Positions 1 to 58,957 of a stretch of DNA of 64,000 nt are shown one piece after another. Numbering within the stretch: the first letter of the stretch is position 1; every line of letters begins with the position of its first letter. The stretch covers positions 6,002 through 70,001 of the forward strand of contig JANTFT010000002.1 in assembly GCA_024763275.1 (NCBI GenBank), read 5' to 3'. The DNA comes from Anaerolineales bacterium. Its GTDB lineage: Bacteria > Chloroflexota > Anaerolineae > Anaerolineales > UBA11858. The notes beneath the pieces are model-generated. The model was given only the letters and a program-made list of their open reading frames with translations, was not told the origin of the DNA and did no database searches. Both the position numbers and the translations under genes were made by a program.

Positions 1-1001
1 AGCACCACCTCATTTATATCTGAAGGTTTCAGGCCGGCATCGTCTAGAGCCTGCTGAACCGGCTTCATGGATTTTTCAATCAAGTCGCCGGTAAGCTGCT
101 CGAGTTTGGAGCGGGTGAATTTCTTAACCAAGTGTTTCGGACCTGACGCATCAGCGGTGATGTAAGGCAGGTTGATCTCGGTCTGCTGCATGGTCGAAAG
201 TTCGATCTTGGCCTTTTCGGCTGCTTCCCGCAAGCGCTGCAGGGCCTGGCGCTGCTCGCGCAGGTCAATGCCCTCTTCCTTCTTGAACTCATCGGCCAGG
301 TAATCAATAATACGCTGGTCGAAATCGTCTCCGCCCAGGAAGGTATCGCCGCTGGTGGAACGCACCTGGAAAACACCCTCGCCTACATCCAGGATGGAGA
401 TATCGAAAGTACCACCACCCAGGTCATAGACAGCGATGACCTCGTTTTGCTTCTTGTCCAACCCATAAGCCAGTGACGAGGCTGTCGGCTCATTGATTAT
501 CCTGAGCACTTCCAGCCCGGCAATTTTGCCGGCGTCTTTAGTGGCATTCCGCTGGCTGTCATTGAAGTAAGCCGGCACAGTGATCACTGCCTGAGTTATG
601 GGCTCTCCCAGGTAATCCTCCGCATCCGCTTTGATCTTGGCCAGGATCATGGCTGATATTTCAGGTGGAGAGTATTCCTTTCCATCCATCACCACCCGGA
701 TATCGCCATTAGGTGCTTTTCGGGTCTCATAAGAGACCATTTTCCTGGCTCGCTCAACGCCGGGAGAATCGAACTTACCACCCATAAATCTCTTGATGGA
801 TGTGATGGTGTTTTCTGGATTCACAACCGCCTGATTCCTGGCTGGCCGACCCACCAGCCGCTCATGATTTTTATTCATGGCCACGACAGAAGGCACCAGG
901 CGATCACCTTCCGCGGACGGGATGATAGTAGGCTCGCCTCCTTCCATGACAGCCGCAGCCGAATTTGTCGTTCCTAAGTCAATTCCTATGATCTTTCCCA
1001 T
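1..1001 (-). CDS. dnaK: Chaperone DnaK (Hsp70), N-terminal ~333 aa; 3' end lies beyond the left window edge
   Basis: Own translation of the minus strand from ATG at 999-1001 gives [14 protein letters not shown]...[14 protein letters not shown]...[17 protein letters not shown]. It is absent from the ORF track because it runs off the edge. It sits downstream of grpE. Confidence 0.95.
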
Positions 1002-1052: not shown

Positions 1053-1703
1053 TTAAGCGGCAACCCGAACCAGGGCCGGCCGCAGTACTTTGTCCCCGAG
1101 CCAATAACCTTCCTGCATTACCTCAATGATCCTTCCGCTTTCATAATCCTCGCTTTCCTCTTTCATCAAAGCCTCATGCAGGTTGGGGTCAAACTCCTCT
1201 CCCAGTGGGTTCATGGGGCGAATGCCTTCTGCCTCCAACCGCCTCTTTAATTTCTGGTAGATAAGATCAATCCCTTCTACCCAGGCCTCCCCATCATTCT
1301 CTTGAGGGATTTCCCGGAGGGCCCTTTCCAGATCATCGAGCACATCTAGATAGATCTTGATGACCTCACCCCTGGCGACCTGCCGGATTTCAGCATTTTC
1401 CTTCAGAATCCTCTTCTTATAATTAGCGAATTCCGCCCGGGACCGCTGCCAGCCATCCAGGTACTCTTCGGCTTTGGCAGTCGTTTCATTCAGCGCTGAC
1501 TGCAGTGCCTCGACCTGGTCCTCCAGGGTGAGCTCTTCTCCCTCTCCTCCCTCAGGAAGGGCTTCTCTGATTTCCAGGTTCTCCTGTTCAGTCAACCCGG
1601 CCTCCAGTGGCTTATCCTGGTTTGCCAGCTCTTCCTGCTCGGTCTTTTCCAGATTTTCCATTTTTTCTTTTTTACTTTTCATAAATTCTCCCTGCTCACT
1701 CAT
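1053..1703 (-). CDS. grpE: Nucleotide exchange factor GrpE with an acidic N-terminal extension
   Basis: The track ORF 1053..1715 starts at TTG. I prefer ATG at 1701-1703, which follows a GAGG. The C-terminal part (RSRAEFANYKKR...) is typical GrpE. The gene lies between hrcA and dnaK. Confidence 0.9.
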   Translation of the reverse strand: MSEQGEFMKSKKEKMENLEKTEQEELANQDKPLEAGLTEQENLEIREALPEGGEGEELTLEDQVEALQSALNETTAKAEEYLDGWQRSRAEFANYKKRILKENAEIRQVARGEVIKIYLDVLDDLERALREIPQENDGEAWVEGIDLIYQKLKRRLEAEGIRPMNPLGEEFDPNLHEALMKEESEDYESGRIIEVMQEGYWLGDKVLRPALVRVAA

Positions 1704-22357: not shown

Positions 22358-23602
22358 TCAGTCAGACGGCGTTGGCGTCAAACTCGGCTCAGGGGTATCG
22401 CTGGGCGTGGGGGTCAGCGTGATAGTAGGTGTAGGCGTCGCAATGCCTTCTGCCGTAAAGACCCGGTCGACCACTTCGCCGAACAAACCCATAACACCCA
22501 GATCGCGCTGATTGTAAATCACATCTACGCCAGCAGCATTGCCGGTAAGCACTTCGATGCTCAATTCCCCACCGAATAATTTCATGCTGCCGGGCTGCAG
22601 CCGTCCCTCAAAAGCCGTGATGTTATCCACGATCACCCGCACCCAGGTGCGCTGCAGGATAACAAGCTGTACCTGGATTTTCTCGTTGCCGGTCAACCCC
22701 GGCGTTGGGGTAAAATCTGGATTCCCTTCACCATCACCGAGAATTTCCACCGTGGGAGAGATGTCCACCTCAATATCCCCAGGCGTGCTTTCTGGGAGAG
22801 CCAGGGTCGCTGTCGGTGTGGATGTCGGCAGCAGGATATCCGCCACCGCGGGGATTGTCGGGGTGTTGTCCAATGAAGAGCCATTCCCATCAAAAATGAG
22901 CAGGCCAGCCCAGATAGACACGCTCCCGATCAGGACCACAACCCCGGCCCATAACAAAGTCGGGTTGGCAAGGAATCTCCTCAGCCAGACTGCCCGGGGA
23001 GAACTGGAGGGTACTCCCGGAATGCCTTCCCGCTGGATCTTCAGTCGGCTCTGCAGAACATCAGCGTAGCTGAGCAGCAGCGGATCCGGATCCAGTCCAA
23101 GGAACTGGGCATAGTTCTTTACCATGCCTTTTCCCTGCACCGTGGATGGCAGGTCTTCCAGGCTGCCCCTTTCAATGGCTTCAAGATATCTTTCGGGAAT
23201 ATAGATCTGCTCAGAGACGTTGGCGATGGTGAAACCCAGCTTTTCGCGCTGGGATTTTAATACCTCTCCAATATCCTCCAGAAGAGCGGGGGGAGCGCTG
23301 ACGTTCTCCTTCTCGGAGGTTGACTCTTCCAGGTCAGTCTCCTCGTCCAGACCATCCTCCTGGAGGAGCGACCGCAGCTGCCGGATCAGCGGGTCGGGTT
23401 CTATATCCAGGGCCCGGGCATAGGAGCGCACAAAACCCTTCCGCTGAACAGATGACGGCAGCGCATCCCAATTGTCCTCCTCGATGGCGGCCAGATATCT
23501 CTCGCGGATCCTGGTGACCAGGGAGATTTCCTCCAGGGTCAGCTTCTTTTCCTGGCGGGCATTTTTCAATATCTCACCGATTGATGGATTTGTCTCAGCC
23601 AT
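22358..23602 (-). CDS. RodZ-like protein with two tandem HTH modules, a TM helix, a DUF4115-like C-terminal domain and a PT-rich tail
   Basis: IGEILKNARQEKKLTLEEIS...RYLAAIEE and IGEVLKSQREKLGFTIANVS...RYLEAIER are duplicated. TM helix LLWAGVVVLIGSVSIWAGLLIF. The C-terminus reads VQLVILQRTWVRVIVD... Confidence 0.7.
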   Translation of the reverse strand: MAETNPSIGEILKNARQEKKLTLEEISLVTRIRERYLAAIEEDNWDALPSSVQRKGFVRSYARALDIEPDPLIRQLRSLLQEDGLDEETDLEESTSEKENVSAPPALLEDIGEVLKSQREKLGFTIANVSEQIYIPERYLEAIERGSLEDLPSTVQGKGMVKNYAQFLGLDPDPLLLSYADVLQSRLKIQREGIPGVPSSSPRAVWLRRFLANPTLLWAGVVVLIGSVSIWAGLLIFDGNGSSLDNTPTIPAVADILLPTSTPTATLALPESTPGDIEVDISPTVEILGDGEGNPDFTPTPGLTGNEKIQVQLVILQRTWVRVIVDNITAFEGRLQPGSMKLFGGELSIEVLTGNAAGVDVIYNQRDLGVMGLFGEVVDRVFTAEGIATPTPTITLTPTPSDTPEPSLTPTPSD

Positions 23603-24493: not shown

Positions 24494-25540
24494 TTATCTG
24501 CGGGAAATGATCGCCCAGGCGGCCAGGCCGATCAGCAGGATCAGCTCGACTATGAAAACCACTCCTGATCTGCGTTCCGGCCTGCGATCCTGCAGGCGCA
24601 CAACCGGGGGAGCTCCCTGCAATGTGAATTCGGGGCCGCCAAACCAGGTGAAGGCTATCCCACCCAGCAGCCCCCCGAAATGGCCCCAGTTATCGATCCC
24701 TGGCGAGAGTCCGATGATAAAATTGATCACTGCCACCTGCGTGATTTGCCACAGCGCCTTTCCAAATCGTTCACCGTACAGCTGCTTATGCTGGTAAATG
24801 AAAACCCCTTCAGCGGCCAGCAAACCAAAGATAGCTGTGGACGAACCTAACGAGGGAGAGGCTGTTAACAGGAAGGAACACAGGTTCCCGCTGATACCGG
24901 AAAGCAAGAACAAACCAAGAAAACGCCAGTGGCCAAAGAAGTTCTCAACCGTGCGGCCCAGGATATAAAGAGCGTAAAGGTTGAACCCCAAGTGCAGGAT
25001 CCCACCGTGCAGAAACATCGCAGTGATCAACCGCCAGTACTGACCGTCGATGATGGCTTCATTGATCTTCATCCCTAATGCTGCCGGCAGATCCTGGTGG
25101 TACAGATACCCTGTCAACAGCTGCAGAAGGTAAATGACCGTCATCAGACTCATCAGGGCGATTGTGACCACAGGCTTTCTTTCTGGCAGCTGCAGGCGGA
25201 CTTTCTCTGGCTGCACCCGCTGTTCATCCCCCGCCCTGCTGCTGGGCCTGTCCGCAGAGCTATCCGGAGACAGGCCAATTTCCCCCCGGGTTACCAGGCG
25301 CTTGAAGTGGATTGGTCCAGCGCTGTTGGCCGAGATATAGGGCAGATCGATCTCCGCGTGAGGGTTCACCCTCAACTCTCGATAGGCCTGTTCAGCTCCG
25401 GCCCGGATCCGCTGCAGAGCAGCTGGATCCCCGGAGAGATCCAGACCATACCGCTGATAAATTTCGGAGAGAATGCTGGAAATCAGCTTTTGGATGCCAG
25501 GATCTGATGGGGTAAAAACCTGTAAAGGAGAATCTGTCAT
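24494..25540 (-). CDS. Rhomboid family intramembrane serine protease with an N-terminal Hsp70 subdomain-IIB-like domain
   Basis: HLGFNLYAL, GSSTAIFGL (catalytic Ser) and WGHFGGLLGG (His) in the TM core. The N-terminal ~90 aa align to DnaK (see findings). The start ATG overlaps the gmk stop (ATGA). Confidence 0.85.
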   Translation of the reverse strand: MTDSPLQVFTPSDPGIQKLISSILSEIYQRYGLDLSGDPAALQRIRAGAEQAYRELRVNPHAEIDLPYISANSAGPIHFKRLVTRGEIGLSPDSSADRPSSRAGDEQRVQPEKVRLQLPERKPVVTIALMSLMTVIYLLQLLTGYLYHQDLPAALGMKINEAIIDGQYWRLITAMFLHGGILHLGFNLYALYILGRTVENFFGHWRFLGLFLLSGISGNLCSFLLTASPSLGSSTAIFGLLAAEGVFIYQHKQLYGERFGKALWQITQVAVINFIIGLSPGIDNWGHFGGLLGGIAFTWFGGPEFTLQGAPPVVRLQDRRPERRSGVVFIVELILLIGLAAWAIISRR

Positions 25541-26169
25541 AATTTGACATTCCGCTGCTGAACCTTGTGCTGCTCCGCTTTGATGATTGCCTCAATGGTG
25601 TCCACCGTCTCTTCCAGGCGATCATCTTTATTGACAACGATATAGTCAAACAAGGGAATTTTATTGTATTCCTGTCTGGTGGTGGCAATCCTCAGTTTTA
25701 AACTTTCCCTGGTCTCTGTGTTGCGCTTCTTTAAGCGGCGGATCAATTCCTCTTCATTCTGGGGAGTGAGAAAGATCAGCAGGGCGTCCTGGACTATATT
25801 TCTGACAGTCTCAGCGCCCTGAACATCCACACGCATGATCACATTCTTGGAGCTGGCAAGGGCTTCCCGGATCTGGGATTTAGGAATACCCTTGTAATCC
25901 TGGTAAACCACCGCGTATTCCAGGAGCTCGCCCTCGTCGATCATTCTGGCAAACTCGTCCTGGGTGAGGAAAAAATAATCCACACCATCAACCTCGTCAG
26001 GGCGGGGGGGACGGGTTGTGGCCGTGATCACAAAATGGAACGGCAGCCCCCGTGCTTTCATCTCTTCCAGAACAGAGTCTTTCCCCACCCCGGAGGGTCC
26101 GGAGATCACTATCAAGAGCGGGTTGGGTTCATCCAGACCAAAGGGGACAGCAGCTGATTCCGAACTCAT
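25537..26169 (-). CDS. gmk: Guanylate kinase
   Basis: GPSGVGKDS P-loop, TTRPPR, YFF.....F layout. Confidence 0.92.
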   Translation of the reverse strand: MSSESAAVPFGLDEPNPLLIVISGPSGVGKDSVLEEMKARGLPFHFVITATTRPPRPDEVDGVDYFFLTQDEFARMIDEGELLEYAVVYQDYKGIPKSQIREALASSKNVIMRVDVQGAETVRNIVQDALLIFLTPQNEEELIRRLKKRNTETRESLKLRIATTRQEYNKIPLFDYIVVNKDDRLEETVDTIEAIIKAEQHKVQQRNVKL

Positions 26170-49872: not shown

Positions 49873-52404
49873 TCAGCCTACCGGGACAGGTTGATCTTCC
49901 TCGTCAGGCAGGAAGGGTTTTCCGTAAACATCCGGATCCCCTTTGGTGAGGATGATATCGCTCTCTTCATCAGAATCCGGACTGCTGGCATCAACCAGCA
50001 CGATGTCGTTGGTGACAAACTTGCCAGAGAGCACTGCATCCGAGAGCGGGTTTTCAATCTTGTTCTGGATTACCCGGCGCAGAGGCCTGGCTCCCATTTC
50101 CGGGTTGTAGCCCAGCTTGACCAGCAGCTCCACACCCTCGGGAGTGATCTCCAACCGGAGGTGTTTTTCAACCAGGCGCTCACGCACCTTGTCCAACTCC
50201 AGGTCGACGATATCCCGGATGTTCTCTTTGGTGAGAGCATGGAAAACAACCACGGAGTCCACCCGGTTGATAAACTCCGGTCGGAAGGTGTTTTTAAGGG
50301 ATTTTAGCAATTTACGGCGCATATCCTCATAATCGCGCTTGCGGGACTGCTCCTCATCTGCGGATAGATCAAAACCGATCGAGGCATTATTCTGGATCAG
50401 GTCGGCGCCGATGTTGGATGTCATAATCACCATGGCATTGCGAAAATCCACTTTTCTGCCGCGGGCATCCGTGATATGGCCTTCCTCCATGATCTGCAGC
50501 AGCATGTTATGGGCTTCCTGGTGGGCTTTCTCGATCTCATCAAACACCACAATGGAATAAGGGCGCCGGCGGATCGCCTCGGTCAGCTGACCGGCGTCAT
50601 CATAACCGATATATCCGGGGGGTGCTCCTACCAGACGGCTGACGCTGTGGCGCTCCATGAACTCGGACATATCCAGATGGATCAGGGCCTCTTCACTGCC
50701 AAACATGAATTTAGCCAGGGCCTTGGTCAGCTCGGTTTTTCCAACACCGGTGGGGCCCAGGAAAATAAAGGATCCTACCGGCCGTTTGGGATCTTTCAAC
50801 CCAGCCCGGGAGCGGCGGACAGCTTTAGCGATCTTTTCAATGGCCTCTTCCTGGCCGACGATATGTTTGTGGAGCTCTTCTTCCATATGGAGCAGGCGGT
50901 CCGATTCCTCTTCCGCCAGCTCTGTGACCGGAATTCCAGTCCACATCGAGACAATTTCAGCGATATCCTCTATTGTGACCGTGGGGCTGCTGTCCCTATC
51001 CCAGGCTGCCTTCAGGTCCTCAAGCTGGTCCTCTAAGGATTTTTCCAGATCTTCCAGATCAGCAGTGGCGATCTCCTCTACCTCTGCCAGCTTCAGCTCC
51101 TTGCGGACAGAGCGCAGTTTCTGGACCACATCTTTGGCTTCCTTCCCAATGGGATTCTTATACATCCGCACCCGGGAGGAGGCCTCATCAATCAGGTCGA
51201 TGGCCTTGTCAGGCAAGAAGCGGTCAGACACATAGCGTGCCGACAGCTCCGTAGCCGCTTCCAGGGCCTCATCGGAGATCTTCAGCTGGTGGTGGTCCTC
51301 ATAGGCAGGGCGGATCCCCTGGAGGATCTCGATAGTTTCTTCCAGAGTCGGTTCGTCAACAGTAATGGGCTGGAAGCGCCGCTCCAGAGCCGCGTCGCTT
51401 TCAATATGCTTGCGGTATTCATCCAGCGTGGTAGCACCAACCACCTGCAGCTCACCGCGAGAGAGAGCTGGCTTGAGGATATTGGCCGCATCCATGGCAG
51501 ATCCCGCAGAACCTGCGCCCACCAGCATGTGGACCTCGTCAATGAACAGGATAGCATCGGACTGCTTCAGCTCCGAAATGACCCGTTTCAGCCTTTCTTC
51601 AAACTGGCCGCGGTACATCGTGCCGGCTACAACAGAACCCAGATCAAGCTGCAGCACCCGCTTACCCAGCAGGGGCGCTGGAACTTCACCGTCGGCGATG
51701 CGCTGAGTCAATCCTTCCACAATGGCGGTCTTGCCAACTCCGGGTTCGCCGATCAAAGCGGGATTATTCTTTGTGCGCCGGGCCAGGATCTGCACTACCC
51801 GCTCAATCTCTGTTTCCCGGCCGATCACCGGGTCCAGCTTGCCTTCTTCCGCCAGATCCGTCAGATTAACCGCCAGCTGATCGACCATGGGCGTGTCGCT
51901 CTTGGATTTGGCGTGTTTGCTCTTGCCAGGCAAACGACGTTCACGCTGCGCTTTCTTGGTATTCTTGGTCTCTTCCATCACCCGCATGGTCTGACGCCTG
52001 ATCTGGTCTGGAGTCAACCCCAGCTGGCTCAATACGTCATTTGCCACACCCTTTCCGTAAACAACCAGTCCGAGCAGGATATGCTCCACCCCAATGTAGT
52101 GGTGGCCTAATTCCCGGGCCTCTTCCACAGCCAGCTCAAGCACACGCTGTGTGCCGCGGGAGAGAGCCAGGGCATCCCCGCTGTATTCCCCTAAACCGGT
52201 TATATTCTCAGTGATGGTCAGCACACTATCAATGTCGACTCCCAAATCTCTCAGGACCTGTCCAGCTATACCTCCCTGGTCAAGAAGCAAACCCAGCAAG
52301 AGATGCTCGGTCCCGATCTGGGCGTGTTTCATGCGTTCAGCTTCTTTATGCGCTAAACTCAAAACCCGCCTTGCTCGTTGGGTAAACCGTTCCATGCTAG
52401 CCAA
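49873..52404 (-). CDS. clpC: ATP-dependent Clp protease ATP-binding subunit ClpC
   Basis: Two Clp_N repeats, two AAA modules ([18 protein letters not shown]) and a middle coiled coil. The TTG start at 52404 has GGAGG 7 nt upstream. Confidence 0.93.
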
Positions 52405-56383: not shown

Positions 56384-58957
56384 ATGATCCCGATCTCCCT
56401 CTCGCTGGAAGGATTTCTCAGTTATAAAGATCCGGTGAAAATCGACTTCACCAGCTTTAGTCTGGCCTGCATCAGCGGTGAGAATGGGGCCGGGAAAAGC
56501 TCGATCCTGGATGGTATCACCTGGGCTCTTTTCGGGCGGGCCAGGAAGCACGACGAGTCGGTCATCAACCTGGACTCAGACCGGGCGGTGGTGACCCTGA
56601 TCTTCGAGTACGAGGGAAATCAATACCGGGTCACCCGCACCAATCCCCGCGGAGATACCAGGTCGGTTTCACTTGATATTCTTTCCGCTGAGGAGAATGG
56701 CGGGGCACCACGCTGGAACCCATTATCTGAGCGAACCCTGCGGGAAACCGATTCCAGGATCGTTGAGATCCTCCGCCTGGATTACGAATCCTTTGTAAAT
56801 GCTTCTTTTTTCCTGCAGGGCGCGGCTGACCAGTTCACCCAGCAAACCCCCTCCGCCAGGAAGCAGATCCTGTCCCAGATCCTGGGGCTGGAGATCTGGG
56901 AAACCTACCGCCTGCGCACCCTGGAGAACAGAAGGCAGGCAGATAGCGAGCTGGTCCGGCTGGAGGGCAGAATTGCCGAGATCACCGCTGAGCTGGCAGA
57001 GGAAGAAGAGCGGAAAAAGCAGCTCAAATCCCTGGAAAAAGAGCTTGCGGAAGCTCAGCGCGACCGCCAGAAAGCCGAAAAAGCCCTCGAGAATCTCCAA
57101 TCCCGATTGTCGTCCCTGGAGGAACAGGGCCGCCTGGTTGAGAAGGCAGCTGTTCATCTGGAGGAAAACAGGGATAAAATCGCCCGGGCTGAGGATAAGC
57201 TCGCCCAGCGCCTTGAAGAGCGTGGGGATTACCAGAAGATCCTCAACCAGACAGAATCCATCCAGCGATCCTATCAAAAGTGGCTGTCCTCCCAGAAGTC
57301 GTTGGCTGCCTGGGAAGCTACCGCGGAAAAGTTCCGGGAAAGCGAGATTAAAAGGCAGGACCCCCTGCTTAAGATCGCCGCTGAAAAGGCCCGTCTGCTC
57401 CAGGAGGAAACCAGTCTGCTGTCCCGCCAGGAGGAGCTTGAGGACAATCTGACCCGGGTCCCCCATCTCAAAGCCGAGATCAAAGACCTTCAAGAAGAAA
57501 TCAAGCGTGCCCGGGAAGAGATCAGCCGTCGCGACGGGAAAAAGGGTGAATTGGAAGCCGCCCGCCAAAAGCAGGCAGACGCCAAAGCAGAAAATCCCCG
57601 CCTGTACAAAGAGATGCAGGATCTTAAAAAGCGCATTCAGGAGCTGGAGGAAACTGAGGGCGCCTCGTGCCCGCTTTGTGGACGTGAGCTCTCCGAGCAG
57701 GACAGGCTTTCCCTGATCGAGGATCTGCAGGTGGAAGGCAAAGTACTGGGAGACCGCTACCGTGAGAACCAGGCGACCCTCAATGAGGCGGATCGGGTTG
57801 TCAGGGAGCTGCAGCTGGAAATCACCGAGTTGAGCCTGGCAGAGAACAGGCTCCGATCCCTGCAGGTTGAGGTGAACAAGCTGGAACACCAGCTGACCTC
57901 TCTGGAGGAGGAGAAGAAGAAGTGGGATAAGAAATACAAAAAAGACCTGGAAAAAATCCAGGGTATTCTCCAGAAAGAATCCTATGCCCAGGAGGCCCGG
58001 AAGGAGCTGGGGGTAATCAATGCCGAGCTGAAAGCCATCGGCTACGACGCCGCAGAACATGACCGGGTCAGGGAATTCAGCAGCCAGGGAGCAGCCATCC
58101 AGGCTAAAAAGGCAGATCTCGACAAAGCCGAGGCCGCTCTGAAGCCCCTGAATCGGGAGATTGCCGAGCTGCAGGAACAGTTGGAGCAGGACAGGAAAAG
58201 CCTGGATCGGGAACAGGCTGAATACGACCGGGCAAGTGAACGGCTGGAACAAGCCCGTCGGGAAGCTCCTGACACACGCCAGGCTGAGGAAGACCTGCTC
58301 GACCTCAAGGAGAGAGAGAACATCCTCCAGCGCGAGGTGGGGGCCGCCCTTCAGAAGGTCGCTGTTCTGGAAGGGCAAAAAGGACGCCTGAGCGAACTCG
58401 AAACCCAGCGGGAGGAATTATCGCGGCGAGTGATGACCTACAGGCAGCTGGAAGCCGCCTTTGGGAAGGATGGTGTGCCAGCTCTGCTTATCGAACAGGC
58501 ACTGCCCAATATAGAAACCAAAGCCAACCAGGTCCTCGATAAATTAACTGGCGGGGATATGTCCGTGCGATTCATCACCCAGCGGGAGTACAAATCAACC
58601 AGCCGGGAGGATAAAAAAGAGACCCTGGATATCCAGATCAGAGATCAAGCAGGGATCCGCGATTATGAGATGTACTCCGGGGGTGAATCCTTCCGGATCA
58701 ACTTCGCCATTCGTTTAGCACTTTCCCATATCCTGGCTCAGCGGGCAGGGGCCAGACTGCAAACACTGGTGATCGACGAAGGCTTCGGGAGCCAGGACTC
58801 TCTGGGAAGACAGCGTCTGATCGAGGCCATCAACCTGGTGCAGGATGACTTTGAGAAAATCCTGGTGATCACTCACATGGAAGAGATCAAGGAAGCCTTT
58901 TCATCCCAGCTGCTGGTGGAAAAAACACCCCGGGGATCCCGGGTAACTTTGGTATAA
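56384..58957 (+). CDS. sbcC: SbcC/Rad50-like SMC-family ATPase with a central CxxC zinc hook
   Basis: N-terminal Walker A GENGAGKSSILD, a long coiled coil, the hook GASCPLCGREL, the signature YSGGESF and Walker B LVIDEGFG. No sbcD is adjacent. Confidence 0.85.
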   Translation: MIPISLSLEGFLSYKDPVKIDFTSFSLACISGENGAGKSSILDGITWALFGRARKHDESVINLDSDRAVVTLIFEYEGNQYRVTRTNPRGDTRSVSLDILSAEENGGAPRWNPLSERTLRETDSRIVEILRLDYESFVNASFFLQGAADQFTQQTPSARKQILSQILGLEIWETYRLRTLENRRQADSELVRLEGRIAEITAELAEEEERKKQLKSLEKELAEAQRDRQKAEKALENLQSRLSSLEEQGRLVEKAAVHLEENRDKIARAEDKLAQRLEERGDYQKILNQTESIQRSYQKWLSSQKSLAAWEATAEKFRESEIKRQDPLLKIAAEKARLLQEETSLLSRQEELEDNLTRVPHLKAEIKDLQEEIKRAREEISRRDGKKGELEAARQKQADAKAENPRLYKEMQDLKKRIQELEETEGASCPLCGRELSEQDRLSLIEDLQVEGKVLGDRYRENQATLNEADRVVRELQLEITELSLAENRLRSLQVEVNKLEHQLTSLEEEKKKWDKKYKKDLEKIQGILQKESYAQEARKELGVINAELKAIGYDAAEHDRVREFSSQGAAIQAKKADLDKAEAALKPLNREIAELQEQLEQDRKSLDREQAEYDRASERLEQARREAPDTRQAEEDLLDLKERENILQREVGAALQKVAVLEGQKGRLSELETQREELSRRVMTYRQLEAAFGKDGVPALLIEQALPNIETKANQVLDKLTGGDMSVRFITQREYKSTSREDKKETLDIQIRDQAGIRDYEMYSGGESFRINFAIRLALSHILAQRAGARLQTLVIDEGFGSQDSLGRQRLIEAINLVQDDFEKILVITHMEEIKEAFSSQLLVEKTPRGSRVTLV

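Follow-up and report, generated by a model that had tools for sequence, protein, structure and literature searches.

A rhomboid of the Anaerolineales with an N-terminal domain homologous to subdomain IIB of the DnaK nucleotide-binding domain

Introduction

The nearest functional precedent for the protein described here is the Bacillus subtilis rhomboid YqgP (GluP), whose N-terminal domain ties proteolysis to the state of the cytoplasm and to the AAA+ machine FtsH (PMC7231995). Like YqgP, the rhomboid that we identified in an Anaerolineales genome is bacterial and combines a core of 6+1 transmembrane (TM) helices with a globular, predicted cytoplasmic N-terminal domain. The two N-terminal domains are, however, unrelated in sequence and fold, and the C-terminal TPR domain of YqgP is absent from the Anaerolineales protein. 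In the wider family, Derlin-1 and Dfm1 (via the SHP box) and RHBDL4 (via a VCP-binding motif) recruit p97/Cdc48 (PMC12615303). By analogy, the logic may be the same, with a rhomboid-fold protein using a cytosolic appendage to reach a soluble proteostasis machine, but these proteins are eukaryotic and rely on short linear motifs rather than on a folded domain derived from a chaperone.

Lobe IIB is usually seen as a built-in element of the Hsp70 ATPase and not as a stand-alone fold, and K270 and S274 of DnaK are adenosine contacts. The lobe of the Anaerolineales rhomboid shares with subdomain IIB of the DnaK nucleotide-binding domain (E. coli residues ~228-310; structures 1DKG, 5OOW and 4ANI) 32-40% identity, a helix-helix-beta-hairpin fold, a hairpin of DnaK length with the LP[YF] and G-P-x-H motifs, and the core residues R261, A265, A269 and L273. 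It differs from DnaK IIB in standing alone, without lobes IA, IB and IIA or the substrate-binding domain, and in the lack of conservation of the last helix. Other differences are relaxation at K270, S274 and the cleft salt bridges, the substitutions T287S, D289N and K294I, and the fusion to a membrane protease. The salt bridges in question span the nucleotide cleft and link E264 and E267 with lobe IB, and residues 290-295 of the hairpin are the ‘GrpE signature’ that is deleted in HscA, an Hsp70 that works without GrpE (PMC8215388).

Full-text literature searches, which cover the published record incompletely, returned neither a rhomboid-Hsp70 fusion nor isolated IIB modules. A 2025 review of rhomboids makes no mention of Hsp70 or DnaK (PMC12615303), and, where a 2020 survey of conflict systems treats Hsp70, it describes whole ATPase domains only. 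We found no published description of the rhomboid-DnaK-IIB fusion.

Results and Discussion

An ordinary rhomboid core behind a hydrophilic N-terminal region

The gene lies in a 64,000-nucleotide stretch of contig JANTFT010000002.1 from an Anaerolineales bacterium (hereafter, the window), and its features are collected in Table 1. The product matches the Pfam Rhomboid family (PF01694) over residues 166-301 (1.7e-35; 122.8 bits against a cut-off of 22.6). The full-length AlphaFold2 (AF2) model has helices at residues 124-147, 168-202, 204-225, 235-250, 252-276, 284-301 and 322-347, where a rhomboid requires at least six TM segments. The TM2 motif is H183/N187 (H-x3-N), and these two residues, G232-S233-S234 of the GxSx motif in TM4 and H287 are invariant in 20 orthologs. 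When the protein is aligned to the iRhoms, its G-S-S falls over the iRhom G-P-A, with S234 over the alanine, and H287 falls over a conserved histidine. By its motifs, the protein is an ordinary member of the S54 family (MEROPS) with intact catalytic residues and predicted protease activity. Several orthologs carry the JGI label ‘rhomboid protease GluP’.

The N-termini of characterised bacterial rhomboids are cytoplasmic. In the Anaerolineales protein, the first 120 residues are hydrophilic, have no signal peptide and end in a basic stretch ahead of TM1, so the IIB-like lobe is predicted to be cytoplasmic as well. The lobe and the core are joined by a linker that cannot be aligned across orthologs. 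Residues 93-114 of the linker have pLDDT values below 50 in the full-length AF2 model, from which the inter-domain geometry cannot be read.

Table 1. Features of the window and IIB-containing proteins discussed in the text (window positions; E. coli DnaK numbering where stated).
Feature	Position	Strand	Basis or remark
Rhomboid gene with N-terminal DnaK-IIB-like domain (P0001)	24494..25540	-	348-aa ORF; Pfam Rhomboid and HSP70
DnaK subdomain-IIB-like domain, residues 14-88	25277..25501	-	AF2, Foldseek, Pfam, dN/dS
Beta-hairpin, residues 61-84 (DnaK 278-301)	25289..25360	-	LPY (DnaK 283-285) and SAGPIH (DnaK 290-295)
Disordered, fast-evolving linker, residues 89-118 (~30 residues)	25187..25276	-	AF2, dN/dS
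Rhomboid core, residues 119-348	24494..25186	-	Pfam; seven predicted TM helices (6+1), AF2
Catalytic S234	24839-24841	-	Rhomboid core, TM4
Catalytic H287	24680-24682	-	Rhomboid core, TM6
gmk (guanylate kinase)	25537..26169	-	NCBIfam guanylate kinase, 282.6 bits, above cut-off
grpE, candidate partner of the IIB-like domain	1053..1703 (called to 1703/1715)	-	Pfam GrpE, 1.8e-46; 216-aa product (P0171)
dnaK, 5' part (first 333 codons; gene runs off the window)	3..1001	-	ORF
TIR + 2 IIB (P0026)			Profile search
FHA + 2 IIB + C-terminal TM helix (P0032, P0033)			One cluster member annotated Planctomycetota
FHA + 2 IIB in larger proteins (P0030, P0031)			Profile search
1305-aa protein with 2 IIB (P0028)			Profile search

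Translational context and genomic neighbourhood

A first-pass annotation of the window, made from the letters alone, had described the rhomboid gene as translationally coupled to gmk. The stop codon of gmk indeed overlaps the start codon of the rhomboid gene as ATGA, an arrangement that is kept in orthologs, including one species whose rhomboid has no IIB-like lobe (G327). A mis-called start was considered and rejected, because orthologs keep the ATGA-coupled start and can be aligned from Met1 onwards. The conserved gene order is pdxS-pdxT-...-tmk-Zn ribbon-gmk-rhomboid-rplI-rodZ-like-miaB-like. No chaperone genes were found in this neighbourhood, and the genes there have housekeeping roles; thus, the neighbourhood is uninformative about function.

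The genome itself encodes GrpE, DnaK and ClpB. The grpE gene had been placed at 1053..1703 by the first-pass annotation, and its product matches the GrpE family of Pfam (Table 1). ClpB scores 1367 bits, above the cut-off of TIGR03346. A whole-genome search recovered only two sequences coding for a IIB lobe, the one fused to the rhomboid and the one in dnaK, which sits in a frame of 651 aa.

Homology and fold of the N-terminal lobe

The lobe was first proposed from a comparison by eye, which assigned nucleotides 25274-25495 to a DnaK IIB homolog with about 28 identities over 72 positions. The coordinates proved exact, corresponding to residues 16-89 of the minus-strand ORF at 24494-25540, and the hmmalign rows of the lobe and the window's DnaK fragment show 28 identities over 73 ungapped positions. 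The homology was borne out by Pfam, BLASTP, phmmer and NCBIfam searches. The Pfam HSP70 family aligns residues 18-87 with profile positions 229-297 of 599 (26.8 bits against a curated cut-off of 20.6), and the score is 29.7 bits for residues 1-125 by themselves. The same 125 residues match the window's own DnaK fragment by BLASTP with an E-value of 2e-15, and the NCBIfam DnaK equivalog models score 44-46 bits on the rhomboid protein. A phmmer search of the PDB retrieved 30 chains of DnaK, mortalin and Hsp70, with Geobacillus DnaK as the best match (6e-12) and an alignment to E. coli DnaK that spans residues 234-305. Chance similarity was rejected on the basis of the BLASTP and phmmer E-values. 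The phmmer values for DnaK-type (1e-10) versus Hsc70-type (4e-3) proteins identify the lobe, by sequence, as DnaK/mortalin-type rather than Hsc70-type.

The predicted fold is that of lobe IIB, as the first-pass annotation had anticipated. An AF2 model of the lobe, built on an alignment of 20 N-terminal domains, has a helix at residues 14-31, a second helix at 39-58 and a hairpin with strands at 61-66 and 79-84, with core pLDDT values of ~80-87. Foldseek searches of the PDB with this model ranked DnaK lobe II (5OOW) and DnaK nucleotide-binding domains highest. The matches to 5OOW, 7N46 and 1DKG have rmsd values of 1.0-1.3 Å over 74-76 columns, 36% identity and a probability of 1.00, with 1.0-1.2 Å over 74 columns for the top hits. 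Sequence comparison and modelling together confirm that residues ~14-88 are homologous to DnaK nucleotide-binding subdomain IIB. The first-pass annotation had named two outcomes that would refute the homology, profile searches lacking a significant Hsp70 match and a predicted fold unlike lobe IIB, and both tests came out in its favour.

The homology does not extend further. The last IIB helix (E. coli ~303-310) is not conserved, so the subdomain was copied only in part. The rhomboid protein is not an Hsp70: the Pfam HSP70 match is limited to the profile segment given above, and lobes IA, IB and IIA and the substrate-binding domain are absent, so only one of its domains is Hsp70-derived. A profile of the N-terminal domain (A2) gave DnaKs of the same family 65-82 bits, close to the 75-86 bits of the best DnaK fragments among 1.8 billion proteins; some 75 residues are too few to name a donor.

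Selection on the lobe and relaxation of the nucleotide-binding surface

We estimated dN/dS from 19 ortholog pairs with dS below 1, against the dS of the whole gene, most genus-wide pairs being saturated. The ratio for the lobe was 0.09-0.37 (median ~0.19), compared with 0.34-2.5 (median ~0.75) for the linker and 0.07-0.25 (about 0.12) for the rhomboid core. By these codon-based estimates, the lobe is maintained by purifying selection and the linker is spacer-like.

The columns under constraint were identified by comparing 48 non-identical rhomboid lobes with 137 DnaK IIB segments, the E. coli number being the rhomboid residue + 217. Conserved in both sets are D251, L252, D255, A258, R261, A265, A269, L273, I281, L283, P284, I286, A288, G292, P293, H295 and R302, which make up the core of the fold and the hairpin. 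Seven further residues (Q260, A266, K268, K270, E272, S274 and N282) are conserved in DnaK and not in the rhomboid lobe. Among them, K270 (92% in DnaK) and S274 (86%) have no conserved counterpart in the lobe. The salt-bridge positions are relaxed as well, with E264 retained in 73% and E267 in 65% of the rhomboid family, and the protein of the window has an alanine (A47) in place of E264. Of the exposed parts of the lobe, the protruding hairpin is conserved best: I64, L66, P67, I69, S70, A71, N72, G75, P76, I77 and H78 are each conserved in at least 92% of the 48 members. Residues 73-78 (SAGPIH) align with DnaK without a gap, and G75, P76 and H78 reach at least 98%. Y68, the equivalent of Y285, is a tyrosine in 75% of the family and otherwise F, S (in five species) or H (in one). 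Changes relative to the co-resident DnaK have been fixed in the exposed hairpin at T287S, D289N and K294I. Because the nucleotide contacts and the cleft salt-bridge residues are relaxed while the hairpin is kept, the constraints related to ATPase function are gone, and the lobe would no longer bind nucleotide. A set of residues (L24, Y31, L33, S36, P39, I45, S70, N72 and I77) is conserved in the rhomboid lobe alone.

Distribution, gain and loss of the fusion

The two-domain Pfam architecture recurs in 20 proteins recovered by a word-indexed search, all of them from metagenome bins of Anaerolineales/Chloroflexi. Across the class, 134 of the 300 genomes that we sampled encode a rhomboid matching the core, and the fusion is absent from all of the 300 except the window's own genome; the other matches start only at about profile position 75-195. 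Among 67 genomes of the family, ORFs joining the lobe and the rhomboid were limited to the genus of the window, and in 30 genomes from ten sister genera a IIB profile finds only DnaK. Among the genomes searched, the fusion is thus confined to a single genus.

Within that genus, the fusion is present in about 27 of the 37 species genomes, as 23-24 well-conserved copies and 4 diverged ones, one of which (G333) has lost the hairpin motif. In seven species (e.g. G327), the orthologous rhomboid is 255-289 residues long and the lobe is cleanly missing. One species has a copy interrupted by a stop codon (G318), and one of the 37 genomes has no rhomboid match. We built a tree from the rhomboid cores, with other families as the root; it is a gene tree and not a species tree. 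On it, the proteins with well-conserved lobes group in a single clade of 24 (SH-aLRT 97). The presence and absence of the lobe on this tree requires two changes, which we read, from the gene sequences, as a single acquisition at the root of the genus and a single loss. The seven species without the domain and the decayed copy indicate that the function of the lobe is dispensable.

A young fusion, confined to one genus and with a clean loss, a broken copy (G318) and a decayed one (G333), could also be a functionless remnant, a stretch of dnaK that was duplicated by accident into the rhomboid gene at its 5' end and is now drifting towards loss. We consider this highly improbable. The selection analysis disfavours it, with a dN/dS of ~0.2 for the lobe against ~0.75 for the adjacent linker, and near-invariant motifs have been kept throughout a clade of 24 species.

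Other IIB-only modules

To look beyond rhomboids, we used the alignment of N-terminal domains as the query for a profile search, run without filters, of 1.8 billion representative proteins. Ranking directly after the rhomboid orthologs were non-Hsp70 proteins with tandem pairs of IIB lobes (Table 1). The contigs that encode two of them measure 11 kb and 658 kb, so these two are real genes. As in the rhomboid, these are isolated DnaK-type IIB lobes outside Hsp70 that have kept the hairpin (LP[FYW]...G-P-x-H) and the A258/R261/L273 core and lost K270 and S274. They differ in being tandem pairs rather than a single lobe, in their partner domains and in the phyla that carry them. By sequence, they appear to be independent acquisitions, and the retention of the same hairpin in independent captures supports a view of the hairpin as the working part of a portable module. 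The IIB lobe could then be a DnaK-mimic adaptor that has been captured independently by an Anaerolineales rhomboid, FHA-domain membrane proteins of the Planctomycetota and a TIR-domain protein, its GrpE- or ClpB-recognition hairpin plugging an effector into the DnaK cycle or monitoring that cycle. This wider generalisation strikes us as doubtful; if true, the lobe would represent a kind of co-chaperone-docking module not recognised before. In the TIR protein, it could serve as a decoy for sensing factors that target DnaK.

Alternatively, the IIB fold could simply have been re-used as a generic cytoplasmic accessory domain unconnected to the DnaK system. Such a domain might mediate dimerisation, membrane orientation, gating or the binding of a substrate or small ligand, as with the cytoplasmic domain of GlpG or the N-terminal domain of YqgP. 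Unrelated soluble regulatory extensions are common on rhomboids (PMC12615303, PMC7231995). The set of residues conserved in the rhomboid lobe alone, the imperfect conservation of the E264 and Y285 equivalents and the dispensability of the domain in seven species are also consistent with a role of this kind. Yet it leaves unexplained why the tip of the exposed hairpin has stayed nearly identical to DnaK while the other former functional surfaces decayed, and why unrelated IIB-only modules have the same hairpin. We rate a generic role as possible but somewhat unlikely.

The hairpin and its candidate partners

In the revised, NMR-validated model of the E. coli complex, the DnaK hairpin (residues 276-302) inserts into the four-helix bundle of GrpE (PMC10825016). 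Lesions in the hairpin weaken binding 30- to 100-fold overall, the KD for GrpE increasing from 3.8 to 120 nM with Y285R and to 440 nM with deletion of residues 285-295, while Q260R on the helix leaves GrpE binding unaffected (PMC10825016). In a cryo-EM complex from Mycobacterium tuberculosis, the IIB contacts to GrpE are E236 and Y257 (PMC10803776). By position, these are E264 and Y285 of E. coli, and their conservation in the rhomboid family is only 73-75%. Since GrpE needs lobes IA and IB of DnaK as well, its binding to a IIB lobe on its own would be weak at best.

Against this background, we tentatively favour a reading of the lobe as a tethered DnaK-mimic docking module with GrpE as the preferred candidate partner. 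On its flexible tether, the lobe would imitate the surface by which co-chaperones recognise DnaK, and its protruding DnaK-type hairpin would dock a component of the DnaK cycle. The likeliest such component is GrpE, through the four-helix bundle of its dimer, and the second choice is the middle domain of ClpB. Docking could couple intramembrane proteolysis to the cytoplasmic chaperone system, or regulate it through that system, and the cytosolic extensions of other rhomboid-family proteins that recruit FtsH or p97 provide a precedent. A hairpin of DnaK length with the 290-295 motif, retained after the adenosine contacts were lost, speaks for docking, as does the same hairpin in unrelated IIB-only modules. 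The first-pass annotation had proposed that the lobe tethers GrpE or other Hsp70 cofactors or serves as a decoy, a hypothesis to which the conserved hairpin and the decayed nucleotide contacts lend circumstantial support.

Several observations speak against docking. The E264 equivalent is an alanine in the protein of the window and, with the Tyr position being S or H in some species, the evidence for GrpE is suggestive and not clean; family-wide, the E264 and Y285 positions are conserved to the 73-75% noted above. The fixed T287S, D289N and K294I changes could mean a different partner. Seven species do without the lobe and one has a decayed copy, and the neighbours of the gene (tmk, gmk, rplI, rodZ) are of the housekeeping kind. 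We also predicted the complex between the N-terminal domain (residues 8-95) and a dimer of GrpE (residues 56-216). The prediction, made without controls, scored 0.05, 0.52 and 0.13 where the mark is 0.32, and it speaks neither for nor against binding.

The second candidate is motif 2 of the ClpB middle domain. By docking it, the lobe would recruit and de-repress the disaggregase at the membrane, where ClpB might extract membrane proteins that are misfolded or have been cleaved by the rhomboid, as a bacterial analogue of the Derlin/Dfm1/RHBDL4-p97 systems. In M. tuberculosis, motif 2 of the ClpB M-domain meets DnaK through IIB only, at M229 and Y257, the latter equivalent to Y68 of the rhomboid (PMC8209680). 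The genome has a genuine ClpB, and the recruitment of AAA+ machines is a known theme in the rhomboid family (PMC7231995, PMC12615303). However, the rhomboid lobes have a small Ala or Val where DnaK has M229, and the native affinity of ClpB for DnaK is only in the tens of micromolar (PMC8209680). Five IIB-bearing genomes, of 91-93% completeness, have no ClpB above the cut-off, and the IIB-less species of the genus keep theirs; the genomes being incomplete and related, this is weak evidence against an obligatory partnership. We judge ClpB docking improbable.

Implications

In the Anaerolineales rhomboid, lobe IIB persists by itself, kept by selection as a module attached to a membrane protease. 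Should its hairpin prove to bind GrpE or ClpB, the protein would be the first rhomboid of any bacterium with a direct connection to the DnaK system. The lobe would then also offer a minimal co-chaperone-binding fragment made by nature, with which the share of IIB in the recognition of GrpE and ClpB could be dissected. Because the genus includes species in which the domain is intact, decayed or deleted, it constitutes a natural experiment on the function of the lobe. To our knowledge, little has been established about what bacterial rhomboids do, which would make any regulatory handle on these proteases valuable.

Predicted cytoplasmic sheet of the rhomboid and natural variants

The full-length AF2 model of the rhomboid protease predicts a small cytoplasmic sheet, in which a conserved V-R-L-Q strand located immediately N-terminal to TM1 is joined by a beta-hairpin formed by the arginine-rich cytoplasmic loop between TM6 and TM7. 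The pre-TM1 motif is shared by rhomboid orthologs that do not carry the DnaK subdomain IIB-like (IIB) lobe. Within the window's genus we identified three natural variants of the protein: one ortholog without the lobe that retains the ATGA coupling to the guanylate kinase gene (gmk), another with the lobe but with the lobe's own hairpin motif lost, and a copy in which a TAA stop codon separates the lobe from the protease core. In the RodZ-like neighbour, precomputed Pfam lists matched HTH_25 twice in the orthologs, as would fit a duplicated HTH module.

Isolated IIB lobes outside Hsp70

Non-Hsp70 proteins encoded outside the window (P0026, P0028 and P0030-P0033) carry isolated DnaK-IIB lobes as tandem pairs, from which the nucleotide contacts are gone and in which the hairpin motif is retained. 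Their architectures include TIR + 2 IIB and FHA + 2 IIB, the Planctomycetota forms of the latter (P0032 and P0033) having a C-terminal TM helix. A 1305-aa tandem-IIB protein also bears Flg_new_2 and Fib_succ_major domains.

Clp ATPases and DnaK-ClpB genes

The 843-aa Hsp100/Clp ATPase of the window looks ClpC-like from its sequence, because it scores under both the ClpB and ClpA cut-offs. The true ClpB of the genome is on a different contig, and a third Clp paralog is on contig C3. Another protein of the window, 857 aa long, resembles ClpB in length. Its domain content, which comprises AAA_23, a Rad50 zinc hook and an SbcC Walker B domain, identifies it as SbcC/Rad50-like and not ClpB. A second DnaK-like gene, with a frame of 632 aa, occurs in one species of the genus (G325), where a second copy of clpB lies approximately 3 kb away. 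Together, the two genes may constitute an extra DnaK-ClpB module.

Coordinates of the features described (window positions unless another genome, locus or contig is named)
Feature	Position	Strand	Details
Predicted cytoplasmic sheet	24494-25200		AF2; residues 115-117, 305-308, 313-318
RodZ-like gene	22358-23602	-	Orthologous loci L003-L006
Hsp100/Clp ATPase	49873-52404	-	843 aa
SbcC/Rad50-like protein	56384-58957	+	857 aa
True ClpB	G000:C46:8905-11457
Rhomboid ortholog, G327	L033 1507-2271		254 aa; no IIB lobe
Rhomboid ortholog, G333	L034 1483-2496		337 aa; IIB lobe lacking its hairpin motif
Rhomboid copy, G318	C1:208059-209058		Split by stop codon
Second DnaK-like gene and second clpB, G325	C49 4094-4333 and 7297-9849
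Tandem-IIB locus L066	5001-5981		Non-Hsp70
Tandem-IIB locus L067	5001-6452		Non-Hsp70
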